Positions 22,001 through 26,454 of a stretch of DNA of 31,997 nt are shown piece after piece. Position 1 is the first letter of the stretch. The number at the start of each line of letters is the position of its first letter. The stretch comes from an uncultured Methanosarcinales archaeon (GTDB lineage Archaea > Nanobdellota > Nanobdellia > Woesearchaeales > GW2011-AR9), in contig CAYJVI010000002.1 in the NCBI GenBank assembly GCA_964373595.1, forward strand, positions 1 to 31,997, written 5' to 3'. The position numbers were made by a program, and so were the translations under genes. The notes beneath the pieces are model-generated. The model did no database searches and was not told where the DNA came from. It was given only the letters and a program-made list of their open reading frames with translations.

Positions 22001-25000
22001 CTGGCACCGGATTAGTTTTATGTTTCTTTCCATTTTCATCGCTGATAAAATCCGCAACTTTTTGATTGTTGGCAGAAAGGTACAGTCCGCAGCTTGCTCC
22101 CGCGACTGTTTCTACTTCAAACACTACCTTGGCCGAACTGACCGCGCCATATAATTTCGGCTGCAGCACATTAATCTTTTCCTGAAGATCAAAGGTGTAT
22201 GCTTTCTGCTTGACATTTTTATTCCCCTGATTATCTTCGCAGGTTACGGTAAGTTCCTGCTTGACTCCCTGCAGATCTTTAAACAGAGCTTCTTTCTTTT
22301 GAACTGTTCTATCAACAGTTTTTACCTGCGCTCCTCCTGCCGGCACCATTTGCTGCAGGCTAAAAGAACATACCATGGGCTCATTGGTTCCATCCAGATA
22401 TACTGATAAGGAAGTTTTGTCGCCCGCAGTTTTAATTTCTTGATTAATCTCAAATTGAGGAGGGACATTGTCTACATAGACAAAAGTTGTCTGCACATTC
22501 TCCTGATTGAAATACTTATCTTTGGAATAAAATTTCAAGGCGTAGGTTTCACCAGGCACTTCTTTTTGCAGTGATTCCAGCACATTGACAATCACGGTTT
22601 CATCCTTCAACTTTCCAGGATACGGTTTCTCTTTGAAATTGGTGCAAATTCCGGGGCTCCCTGGTGCCGCGCTGGTCAAACAAAATCCAGCCACGCCGAG
22701 GGGGCTTTCCGCGTCCTTAGCTTGAAAAGTAATATTAGGCGCAGCTAAGGAAAGAATAGCTTGTCCTTTGGAAACAACCTTAGTGCTTGGCGCAGTGTTA
22801 TCGACGCGGCAATTTGCTCTGTCTCCCGCATTAGCAAATGAGGCACAATCATCTTTTCCATTTCCATCTCCGTCCTTCATGCAGGTGCCTGGGCCGTCTT
22901 TGAGGCCATCCCAAACACATCTCCCCCAGCTGCATTGATCTGATGAAAGGACGAATTCCTGACGATCATTTTTTTCCAGGTTTTGCCCGCCGCTGCATTC
23001 GCTTTCAAACTGATAGGAATAACAGTTAGTATCTGGAGTAGGTTTGTCGCCGCAGGAAGCGCAATATTTTAACGGTTTGTCTTTAGTCACAGAATTGGAA
23101 AAACAAGCGCCTAAGCTGGAACAAACCTGATCAGTGCAAAAGTAGTTTTCAAACAAACTTCCTTTAGGGCCGCATAATGAACATTTATCATCGTCATCGT
23201 AATCTTTTTCTACACAATATCCAGTTCCGGTTTCCGGAGTAACCGTGGTAGGTATATTTAACCCAGAAAATAGCTTACTATAATCAAGCAGCGGATTAGT
23301 GGCTGCGCTGCCTATCCACTGGCATGCTGCCCCAAAACAATTATTGATTTCACAGGCATCCTTGCTTCGGTAATCAAAACAGCTGGTTAGGGAATCGCAG
23401 CGGTTGCATTGGTTGACAATGCTGTTGCTGTAATCGTAGTAGCAATAATTTTTAGCCTGTTTCGGATCCTCTGAACCGTAGCAGACGCTTCGTGAATAAT
23501 ACAATCCAAACGGATCTGCTCCTTGAGAGAAAGCATTGCACATACCCGCATCTTTGCAAATGGCATTATGCTCTCCTACCTGAGCGCAGAACCACACCTG
23601 CGCTTCTCCATCCACAACCCCGTCGCTGGCAGAACAGTCCTGAGAAACAACCAGCTTATTTTGGTCATTGCAGCTCCAAATACTCTTTCGCTCATTGGCT
23701 TTCACCCGACAGAATAAATCCCAGCCGATGCTTTCAGAATAACGTCCTTCACAGTCTTCATCGCCCAGAGTAATAGCCGCTGCCGCCGGCTTTTTAGAAT
23801 TCTCTCCGGCATATACGGCTACAATTTCATATTTGTAGGTTTTGCCCCATTCAACCTTAGCATCAATCTTGGAATTTTCAGCAGCAGAAACAGTAAATTT
23901 ATCGACTTCAGCGTTATTATGGTATTTGGTAACCTGGTAACTAAACACTTCAGGACAGGGCTTTACCCATTGGAGCAAGACTTCTTCTTTACCCCGGACA
24001 TGACTGGCAGAAAATTTAACCACATCTTTAGGCGGATTTGGAGGAGTGCATTCGCCGATGAATTTTGTTAACGGCAAATCCATGGCCAGAGATTTTCCCT
24101 CCAGCACGGTAAATTTCTGAGAAACGCTATAATCCTGGTGTGTGGCTAAAATAGTGTGCTCTCCGGCAGGAAGAGAAAATTGATATTCGCCGGTAGGGGA
24201 AAACTTGGAATATCCCTTAAAGACGTTATCGATGTATAATTTTGCGCCGTTGATTTCTTCCTTAGGGTCGCATTTTTTATTTTTGTTATCGTCAATACAA
24301 GTTTTTCCTTTAATTCCCTGAAACCCTGCGCTGGCTAATTGAAAGTTAACCGTAACTGCTCCTTCGCCTACAGTAATATCTTTCTTCTGAGGAAGGAAAT
24401 TCGGCTTGCTGGCAATAACCAAATACTTGCCGACGGGAAGATCGGGGATAACATACTTGCCGGCATCATTTGTTTTTATTTGCCCGCTGACAGGGCCGCT
24501 CCAGGAAATAGTTGCGCCGGCAAGAGGAAGATTATTCTGATCCAGTACTTCGCCTTGTATGCTTCCAACGCCAACTGCTTTCATCAGAACTATATTTTTC
24601 GCTACTTTTTCACCGGGCTGTAAGGTGAGCGAAAGTGACGCCGGTAAATATCCGATTAGGACAACTTTAACTAAATATGTTCCCGGATTAAGCTCAAAGG
24701 CATAACTTCCGGAAGGATCCGTTTTCTTTTGTAATCCCGTTCCTTCCAGGGAAAAATCTGCGCCTTCAAGCGGTTTGCCGTCTTGATTCTTAACTATCCC
24801 GCTTAAGCTTGCTTTTACGACTTTAATATTGCAGAGCTGGTTGCACTTATCCGTGTTCATGCCCAGCTCATTATTATAAATACGATCTTGAAGGGGAACC
24901 CCAAACTTTGCAGCCCTATCATCGCATTGAAACTTATTGAGATTGAACTGGCAGAAATTCTTAGCAGGAATATTGCAGCAGCCAGGAGAACACCAGTAGG

Positions 25001-25407: not shown

Positions 25408-26454
25408 TTACTTTTTGGCGGCCATCTCTTTTAATTTTTCGAGAGCTTTCTGAGCTTCTTTCTGTTGCAGCACTTTTTGCTCTTTTTCTTTTATCACTGC
25501 ACCCAAATGCTCCAGATTCTGGAAGACATTTTCTTTCTTTTCGGGTTTGCGATGTCGTGCAGCTACTTTTTGCAGCTTAGTAAAAATGTCTTCTTTCTTT
25601 ACTGATGCCGGGCCAAATTCCTGAAGAACTTCTTTCTGCTTCTGATGTTTTACCTTCTGTTGATGCGCTGACCGCAATTTTGCGATTCTCTCCTGAGCTG
25701 CGGTTGAACCAAAACCGATCCATTCCCAAAGTGTTCTTTTTTCTTCTGCCTCTTCAGGAAGATGAAGTTTGGAGCGCTTTGAATAGCGCCATAAAGCATG
25801 CGCTAAATAAATCATTCCCGCTACAAATGCAAAAAACAACAGCCACAGCAAAAACAAGGAATCTCCGACATCCTTCGCTGGATATTGCTGAACAGGATAC
25901 GAGGGAAGCGAGGGCAGGATGGTTTCTCCTGAAACATTCCCTATCTTCTCGGGCTGGGCTTTTTCGACGGAAAGCAGGCCCTGGCTGCACTGCTGCGAGC
26001 AGGTTAATTCGTCTATGGGAAAGGCAAAAAGGTATCGGCCGACATCTTTATTTTTGGCTTCGATTTCGCATTTCCACTTGTTTTCCTTATAGCCGCAGAA
26101 GGAACCGCCAAAGTAAGGAAATTGGCAGCATCCGGAAGAGCACCATTCGCTTTCTTTTCCCTCGGGAACTTCGCCGCCTAAACATTTTCCGGCAAATTCT
26201 TCTTTGCAGGAACTTTTACAGAGAACCTTTTGACAGGACGGAAAGGCATCAGCATCTGCGCACGTTTCTCCTTCAAAGAACGCTGACAGCAGTGCGCAGC
26301 CCTCGTAAAAAGAACATTCCTGCTGAGCTTTCTCTGAAGTTGCATCAGTACAATAAAAAGGGCTGTCCGGATAGAGGAAACAGCCTTCCTGGGCTACGGC
26401 AAAAGGGATGACTAAAAAAAGTGCCGCTATGAATATTAAATATTTAAACTGCAT
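25408..26454 (-). CDS. Type I membrane protein, 348 aa; short paralog of the 2080-aa protein
   Basis: Signal peptide ending AVA; 16-Cys domain; TM LFLLWLLFFAFVAGMIYLAHALW; Lys/Glu-rich tail; TAATG overlap with the upstream gene. Confidence 0.85.
   Translation of the reverse strand: MQFKYLIFIAALFLVIPFAVAQEGCFLYPDSPFYCTDATSEKAQQECSFYEGCALLSAFFEGETCADADAFPSCQKVLCKSSCKEEFAGKCLGGEVPEGKESEWCSSGCCQFPYFGGSFCGYKENKWKCEIEAKNKDVGRYLFAFPIDELTCSQQCSQGLLSVEKAQPEKIGNVSGETILPSLPSYPVQQYPAKDVGDSLFLLWLLFFAFVAGMIYLAHALWRYSKRSKLHLPEEAEEKRTLWEWIGFGSTAAQERIAKLRSAHQQKVKHQKQKEVLQEFGPASVKKEDIFTKLQKVAARHRKPEKKENVFQNLEHLGAVIKEKEQKVLQQKEAQKALEKLKEMAAKK

Follow-up and report, generated by a model that had tools for sequence, protein, structure and literature searches.

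A 16-cysteine head domain shared by a giant and a stalk-less membrane protein in one family of Woesearchaeota-type archaea

A 31,997-nucleotide stretch of archaeal DNA (contig CAYJVI010000002.1 of assembly GCA_964373595.1, positions 1 to 31,997; hereafter the window) contains two adjacent genes on the minus strand whose products, a giant of 2080 amino acids (aa) and a short protein of 348 aa, begin with the same cysteine-rich region. This raises the question of what such a region is, and why it is carried both by a very large protein and by a small one. The region, referred to here as the head, is an autonomous extracytoplasmic domain of ~140 aa that lies directly after the signal peptide in both paralogues, and neither its sequence family nor its predicted fold has a described match among the libraries searched. 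Within the giant head (residues 32-168), 16 cysteines are found at positions 32, 44, 57, 63, 75, 81, 86, 90, 98, 115, 119, 120, 128, 137, 164, and 168, a spacing of 12-13-6-12-6-5-4-8-17-4-1-8-9-27-4. Within the short head (residues 25-156), 16 are found at positions 25, 35, 47, 53, 65, 74, 79, 83, 91, 105, 109, 110, 120, 129, 152, and 156, a spacing of 10-12-6-12-9-5-4-8-14-4-1-10-9-23-4, and these are all the cysteines that the short protein has. An earlier note on this DNA, made from the sequence alone, had reported 16 cysteines in each protein, in the same order and at nearly identical spacing; counting in both translations confirms this, and the two N-terminal regions align significantly (35% identity, BLASTP E=3e-21). 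The sub-motifs that the note listed as shared (GC..YP, AQ..CS, GG.EVP, WCS.GCC, and NK..C) all fall on identical columns of the pairwise alignment. The segment to which it assigned them, 24831-26382, extends from the last codon of the cysteine region of the giant head to the first cysteine codon of the short head. These are the only two copies of the head in the source genome (1.1 Mb, 140 contigs, 82% complete), a result on which a relationship between the head and the cysteine-rich parts of two giants encoded upstream was dropped. The idea that the head contains a duplicated hairpin-helix unit (GC-x-[YF]P...[FY]C) was also considered, and was rejected when hhalign of the sub-alignments gave a probability of <3%.

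The earlier note had not recognised the family, and that statement holds: no Pfam-A or NCBIfam family covers giant residues 29-170 or short residues 22-159 at E<=1, nothing among PDB sequences matches the head in either a single-sequence or a profile search, and literature searches found no paper describing a 16-Cys domain of this kind. An AlphaFold2 model of the short head, built from a 104-sequence alignment (model me699ede040c1), has mixed strands and helices, with a predicted local distance difference test score (pLDDT) of 94.5 and a predicted template modelling score of 0.76. A model of giant residues 27-345, built from a giant-only alignment, has a mean pLDDT of 87.4 (~78-93 per 10-residue block over the head) and presents strands and helices in the same order as the short head, followed by beta-sandwiches. 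When the modelled head was compared with known structures, the best Foldseek match in the PDB had an E of 1.4, and the best match in a VIA-align scan of 48,161 chains had a Z of 3.9, over 37 residues of a designed mini-protein, where unrelated models typically reach a best Z of 7-8 by chance. Kazal or follistatin-type modules account for 10 of the 50 weak VIA-align matches (Z 2.0-3.5). Among predicted viral folds (BFVD) the best E was 0.36, and in the ESM Atlas the best score was 0.80, with none at or above 0.9. Modelling and fold searching, which the earlier note had proposed, have provided a confident model and no match to a solved or viral fold. (It should be noted that "no known fold" means none among solved and viral structures.)

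The arrangement of the two genes and of their products is as follows.

19092-25334, minus strand: giant gene (open reading frame and translation, 2080 aa)
25251-25334, minus strand: giant N-terminal signal, residues 1-28 (QKRG, an unbroken hydrophobic stretch, and a small-residue site, VLG, adjoining the head)
24825-25250, minus strand: giant 16-Cys head, residues 29-170 (alignment, cysteine pattern, and AlphaFold2 model)
19557-19631, minus strand: giant predicted transmembrane (TM) helix, residues 1902-1926 (hydropathy scan and motif position)
19095-19556, minus strand: giant predicted cytoplasmic tail, rich in Lys and Glu (repeated [VI]F.KL..[IL] motifs; homology to the short tail)
25408-26454, minus strand: short gene (open reading frame and translation, 348 aa)
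25978-26391, minus strand: short 16-Cys head, residues 22-159 (AlphaFold2 model; cysteines invariant in 14 short homologues)
25861-25977, minus strand: short linker, residues 160-198, rich in Pro, Ser, and Gln and poorly conserved (sequence and alignment)
25789-25860, minus strand: short predicted TM helix, residues 199-222 (hydropathy scan)
25411-25788, minus strand: short predicted cytoplasmic tail, residues 223-348 (alignment; homology to the giant tail)
25335-25407, minus strand: intergenic spacer of 73 nucleotides that separates the two genes and contains a TTTATAAA box ~29 nucleotides before the giant ATG (read directly)

The giant is composed of an N-terminal signal, the 16-Cys head, a stalk of ~1730 aa, one TM helix, and a cytoplasmic tail of ~154 aa; the short protein is composed of a Sec-type signal, the head, a Pro/Ser-rich linker of ~40 aa, a TM helix, and a tail of 126 aa. 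As the earlier note had supposed for both carriers, these layouts predict membrane proteins, each with a single pass and with the head outside. What that note missed is that the tails are homologous (and that the head is a part exchanged between families, which is taken up below). The last 41 aa of the two tails align with a BLASTP E of 8e-4, and a profile-profile comparison (hhalign, 96 short tails versus 33 giant tails) gives a probability of 98.4% and an E of 5e-15 over 106 columns. The tails contain three copies of the motif [VI]F.KL..[IL], the last of which is at the extreme C-terminus. Because the tails are homologous, the short protein is a stalk-less paralogue that consists of head, linker, anchor, and tail, and the giant has the plan of the short protein with ~1730 residues inserted between head and anchor. 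The end of the tail by eye resembles a MIM1 pattern of the ESCRT-III type, which would bind an MIT domain; this idea was dropped, as no MIT domain (PF04212) was found in five family genomes, which included the source genome and of which four are 96-100% complete.

Other features of the two genes can be noted here. Within the stalk, Pfam matches comprise three CarboxypepD_reg domains at residues 180-335 and stretches resembling fn3 and Big_3_3. A second cysteine-rich zone, with ~36 cysteines, occupies giant residues 528-900 (22635-23753); it has no Pfam family match and ranks with the better conserved segments of the giant (0.41 versus 0.37 overall). Near the membrane (residues ~1780-1878; 19701-19997) lie Asp-rich stretches of the DxDxDG type that by eye are like thrombospondin type 3 calcium-binding repeats, and a similar stretch is present in a pilin-like protein encoded at 11430-12311. 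The ATG of the short gene overlaps the stop codon of the upstream 860-aa gene in the sequence TAATG (26452-26456), and the TTTATAAA box in the spacer suggests that the giant gene may have its own promoter.

The cysteines of the head are kept with little exception. All 16 are invariant in 14 short homologues, and 125 of 130 full-length head domains retain every one of them. Where losses have occurred, the third and fourth cysteines (C3 and C4) disappeared jointly twice, plus once in L019, and C12 and C14 disappeared jointly twice, while loss of a single cysteine was seen once only. Joint loss in pairs is as expected of bonded pairs, and it allows pairings to be assigned for two pairs only, C3 with C4 and C12 with C14. 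VKOR (PF07884), moreover, is encoded by all five family genomes searched, versus only 3 of 14 control genomes; in the source genome there are two VKOR homologues (G000:C15:8162-8545 and G000:C43:8309-8680). Since the cysteines are invariant, their losses are paired, both proteins have export signals, and VKOR is present, the presence of eight disulfides, which would form outside the cell, is well supported, and the head could plausibly be folded oxidatively by the encoded VKOR. The earlier note had spoken of a disulfide-knotted receptor or interaction module. On this evidence the disulfides are well supported; the receptor is a candidate role.

How widely the head is distributed was determined with a profile built from the two sequences, as the earlier note had suggested, and run against 1.84 billion protein representatives at a cut-off of E<=1e-3. 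The 183 representatives that match always have the head at residues ~25-165, and they point to a family of Woesearchaeota-type DPANN archaea. Their lengths are essentially bimodal, either ~300-440 aa or ~2000-2250 aa, the rest being mostly shorter pieces; giant orthologues across the family have 1979-2250 aa, and the short form is represented by 97 cluster representatives of 290-450 aa. Head carriers are labelled as metagenome-assembled genomes of Woesearchaeota or Nanoarchaeota, and for some the automatic label "Methanosarcinales" probably reflects a misassigned bin. In the GTDB family to which the window belongs, the head is present in 56 of 61 genomes, 54 of 58 genera, and 43 of 46 high-quality genomes, and no match was found in the 247 genomes that represent 135 other families of the order. 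By these searches, the 16-Cys head is confined to one family.

Approximately 31 of the 61 family genomes have two head matches, and in the listed places most short copies lie in the same orientation as the giant, ~1.1-1.4 kb upstream. In a quick tree of 130 heads, a short clade of 96 entries is separated from a giant clade of 33 giants and one 354-aa entry. The branch between the two clades has a Shimodaira-Hasegawa-like approximate likelihood ratio test value of 100, and this topology indicates one old duplication with no later homogenisation. The short protein arose once, early in the family, and in roughly half of the genomes it has since disappeared or decayed. In the genus of the window, seven genomes of 90-96% completeness are without the short gene, and at seven short-less loci examined in this genus the 860-aa upstream gene directly adjoins the giant. 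The giant is a core gene; the short form is an accessory one that many genomes have lost. Just upstream of the giant, truncated or partial short copies are found at G017:C1:167116-167247, G045:C57:37259-37417, G047:C33:9524-9766, and G321:C4:37170-37379; partial head matches in such shortened frames would appear to be remnants of a short gene in decay.

Outside the family, the giant itself persists with a different N-terminus. With a 601-aa stalk query, giants at syntenic positions are retrieved from other families; they have 1760-2050 aa, match at 28-31% identity (E 1e-31 to 1e-55), and are followed by a run of small prepilin-type genes, as in the window. Four genomes flagged as unpublished (G151, G222, G245, and G247) contribute to the tallies of this stalk search and, in the case of G245, to a negative result on short paralogues; none of the claims made here depends on them. 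When the whole giant was compared by BLAST with four out-of-family giants, three aligned only after the head (from query residues 167-257). For one, in family f116, the alignment passes through the head, which has 18 cysteines at a spacing recognisably close to the 16-Cys pattern. The N-termini of out-of-family giants contain 12-22 cysteines in other arrangements and are not matched by the head profile, and their tails keep motifs of the F.KL type. Stalk, anchor, and tail align across families, and the N-termini differ; it is thus the head that is exchanged from one family to another. The giant stalk, anchor, and Lys/Glu-rich tail are, by these alignments, conserved order-wide within a prepilin-type gene cluster. 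No short paralogue was found beside out-of-family giants using their own heads as queries; a match in G155 that was considered as such a paralogue is most likely the N-terminus of the giant itself on another contig.

Within the family, the head does not vary in the manner of a rapidly evolving surface. Conservation along 33 giant representatives is even, with a mean pairwise column identity of 0.37 for the whole protein and 0.35 for the head. In comparisons of nine orthologues from the genus, the head shows a lower nonsynonymous divergence (dN) than the 490 residues that follow it in 35 of 36 pairs, and the ratio of dN to synonymous divergence (dS), omega, is ~0.02-0.07 for the head in the six pairs in which dS is unsaturated, dS being saturated in most. 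Diversifying selection, for which the earlier note had proposed to look, is not seen and was dropped as an explanation. These values argue that within the family the head is under purifying selection and is not engaged in an arms race.

The setting of the two genes bears on how the proteins might be exported. A minus-strand block extends from ~8.5 kb to the end of the window, and in most of the proteins it encodes a K[KR][GA] start leads into a hydrophobic helix. The gene order is conserved: a large P0004-like protein, the 860-aa prepilin-type protein, the short protein (where present), the giant, and five smaller genes that have prepilin-type N-termini and encode 185, 372, 181, 184, and 117 aa in the window; the first four of these recur in most relatives compared and the 117-aa gene in 2 of 8. 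Of 25 family genomes, 24 encode a prepilin peptidase; none was found in the source genome, which is 82% complete. That genome has one T2SSE-type ATPase, on another contig, and a T2SSF platform protein was not detected in it at this completeness. The N-terminus of the giant (QKRG and a long hydrophobic stretch) has the pattern of a class III (prepilin-type) signal, and that of the short form does not: K/R-G/A plus a hydrophobic stretch is found in 25 of 33 giants versus 8 of 97 short forms, the median uncharged N-terminal run is 19 versus 17 residues, and a proline lies inside the hydrophobic run in 6% versus 41%. The K[KR]G N-terminus is conserved in out-of-family giants also. Nearly all giants have in addition, as do the short forms, a small-residue (AxA-like) site directly before the first cysteine. 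Neither protein is predicted to have a pilin fold at this position: in both head models the hydrophobic stretch is followed at once by a beta-strand.

What, then, does the head do? The reading favoured here, to which about an even chance is given, is that the head serves as a binding cap, specific to the family, on a conserved surface apparatus. As the binding end proper to this lineage, it would have as its target a conserved ligand carried by another cell (a partner or a host) or by a surface. On the giant it would be displayed at a distance from the membrane and on the short form close by, and both proteins would be tied through their common tail to the same cytoplasmic partner. Three observations weigh against this proposal. 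The short form is dispensable even within a genus; strong purifying selection together with average variability fits a structural contact as well as it fits a receptor; and the giant head, given the K[KR]G N-terminus, could be not free at the far end. The last point also bears on the display at two heights that the earlier note had envisaged, as the giant, with K[KR]G and its hydrophobic N-terminus, might stay bound to the membrane or to a filament. Which cleavage site is used, that after K[KR]G or that before the head, decides between a giant head that is free at the far end and one that is held at the membrane. If the giant were a class III substrate, cleavage at K[KR]G would leave its hydrophobic N-terminus embedded in the membrane or part of a short filament or platform, so that both heads would be membrane-adjacent and would dock or nucleate the pilin-like apparatus, with the short form as a modulator. 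The distribution of K[KR]G among giants (in and out of the family) and short forms is in keeping with such a mechanism, as are the long, proline-free hydrophobic run, the neighbouring genes with the same kind of N-terminus, and the prepilin peptidase in the family. Yet the AxA-like site precedes the first cysteine in nearly every giant, the models place a beta-strand 3-6 residues past the hydrophobic stretch with no amphipathic continuation as in a pilin helix, and a C-terminal TM helix with a cytoplasmic tail would bar exit as a filament subunit; this mechanism is, on balance, rather unlikely. A bolder extension of the binding cap, which is regarded as quite unlikely, would have this archaeon dock to a partner cell in two steps, with the giant and the short protein as its long and short receptors: the family-specific head on the giant would first capture a conserved ligand at a distance of tens of nanometres, that on the short form would then hold it near the membrane, and the shared tail would signal the contact to one intracellular partner. 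If this were true, head exchange between families on a constant chassis would mark changes of partner.

It is also conceivable, if unlikely, that the giant is an S-layer or canopy protein whose heads make head-to-head lattice contacts and have no outside ligand, with the short protein as an anchor or filler subunit. A core gene that is near single-copy, evenly conserved (head included), and under purifying selection would suit such a lattice, as would a C-terminal TM anchor beneath many beta-sandwich domains. Moreover, one S-layer family of NCBIfam, the Kustd1514 glycoprotein, is matched in part (E=9e-11, 39.9 bits versus a cut-off of 1400), and S-layer-like, Cys-containing, C-terminally anchored proteins are described from archaeal type IV pilus loci (PMC4858521). 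A lattice protein fits less well with a head that is exchanged between families while the stalk stays, with a gene that is embedded in a prepilin-type operon rather than free-standing, with a short partner that is optional, or with a conserved cytoplasmic tail of 126-154 aa bearing repeated motifs. Such a long, motif-bearing cytoplasmic tail is unusual for S-layer proteins. Two further possibilities concern the head alone. Its high cysteine density, with C-x4-C-x3-C and CC motifs, could signify bound metal (Zn or Fe-S clusters) and a redox or metal-sensing module; but the export signals of both proteins are ordinary and the domain faces outward, cysteines are lost in pairs and not in fours, VKOR is present, and no His or Asp partners are conserved alongside the cysteines, which together make a metal site very improbable. 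Even less credible, to the point of being extremely improbable, is a string of Kazal/follistatin-like modules serving as a protease inhibitor or a protease-resistant shield. The weak structural matches to such modules prompt the idea, but all of them lie below the chance level of the tool; no Kazal profile matches at E<=1, no internal repeat is detectable, and 16 cysteines in one unit of ~140 aa are a misfit to six-Cys units of ~50 aa (paired 1-5, 2-4, 3-6).

Several known systems share features with this locus. Among them, archaeal type IV pilus loci (e.g., arCOG05471 in Thermoproteales) contain large, C-terminally anchored, Cys-containing S-layer-like proteins together with large proteins that have signal peptides (Makarova, Koonin and Albers 2016, PMC4858521). 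The locus in the window likewise places a big surface protein with one C-terminal TM helix and conserved cysteines among small prepilin-type genes and beside another large secreted protein. It differs in its DPANN lineage and in encoding a cytoplasmic tail that is both long and conserved, a defined head with 16 cysteines, and a paralogue without a stalk, and the likeness is one of description. Modules of the PilY1 tip-adhesin with minor pilins in bacterial type IVa pili, and GspH-K pseudopilus tips, similarly combine, in an operon, small pilin-like proteins with very large presumed binding proteins. Unlike these modules, the present proteins have no PilY1, DUF2341, or beta-propeller Pfam match, the giant has its own C-terminal TM helix, the secretion ATPase is encoded elsewhere, and the platform protein was not found in the 82%-complete genome. 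Like Kazal and follistatin modules, which provided the most frequent weak structural matches, the head is predicted to be a small, disulfide-stabilised, alpha+beta extracellular unit; it is unlike them in the number and spacing of its cysteines, and there is no sequence match and a Z of 2.0-3.5 only. The adhesins of Actinomyces oris pili are reported to need MdbA/VKOR for disulfide formation (PMC5478893). They too are surface proteins served by an extracytoplasmic disulfide system that includes VKOR, which is present here; they belong to sortase pili of a Gram-positive bacterium, and no homology is claimed.

Variant-specific and high-cysteine membrane proteins of Giardia are type I proteins with a Cys-rich ectodomain and a short conserved cytoplasmic tail; they have CXXC repeats, form large variable families, and serve antigenic variation. 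By analogy, the proteins described here resemble them in having a Cys-rich outer part, one TM helix, and a conserved tail. Unlike these eukaryotic proteins, they are present in one or two copies per genome and are under purifying selection. Neither the type of locus nor the broad concept of cysteine-rich surface giants in archaea is new. The 16-Cys family, a predicted fold without relatives, a stalk-less paralogue with a shared tail, and the exchange of the head on a conserved chassis are new, and no paper describing them was found. Woesearchaeota-type archaea are abundant, uncultivated, and thought to be dependent on other cells, and to our knowledge nothing is known of how they touch them. 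The head, which sits on the core giant of a conserved surface-apparatus locus and represents a further domain family without recognisable fold relatives, is compact (~140 aa), expressible, and family-specific, and it could serve as a probe for the ligand or the partner organism of the whole family, with the stalk-less paralogue as a natural control. Its 16-Cys pattern is in addition a clear marker of the family.

Two other genes of the window may be mentioned. The giant encoded at 29085-31997 is truncated at its 5' end in the window, and full-length orthologues of it are found at L018:10979-16228(-) and L017:14024-19000(-); in these the signal ends in LLSGC or LVSGC, which is lipobox-like, and there is no C-terminal TM helix. 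The only plus-strand gene in the pilin-like block, 15046-16317(+), encodes a fusion of a P-loop NTPase (KAP / ATPase_2-like) with a winged-helix domain.

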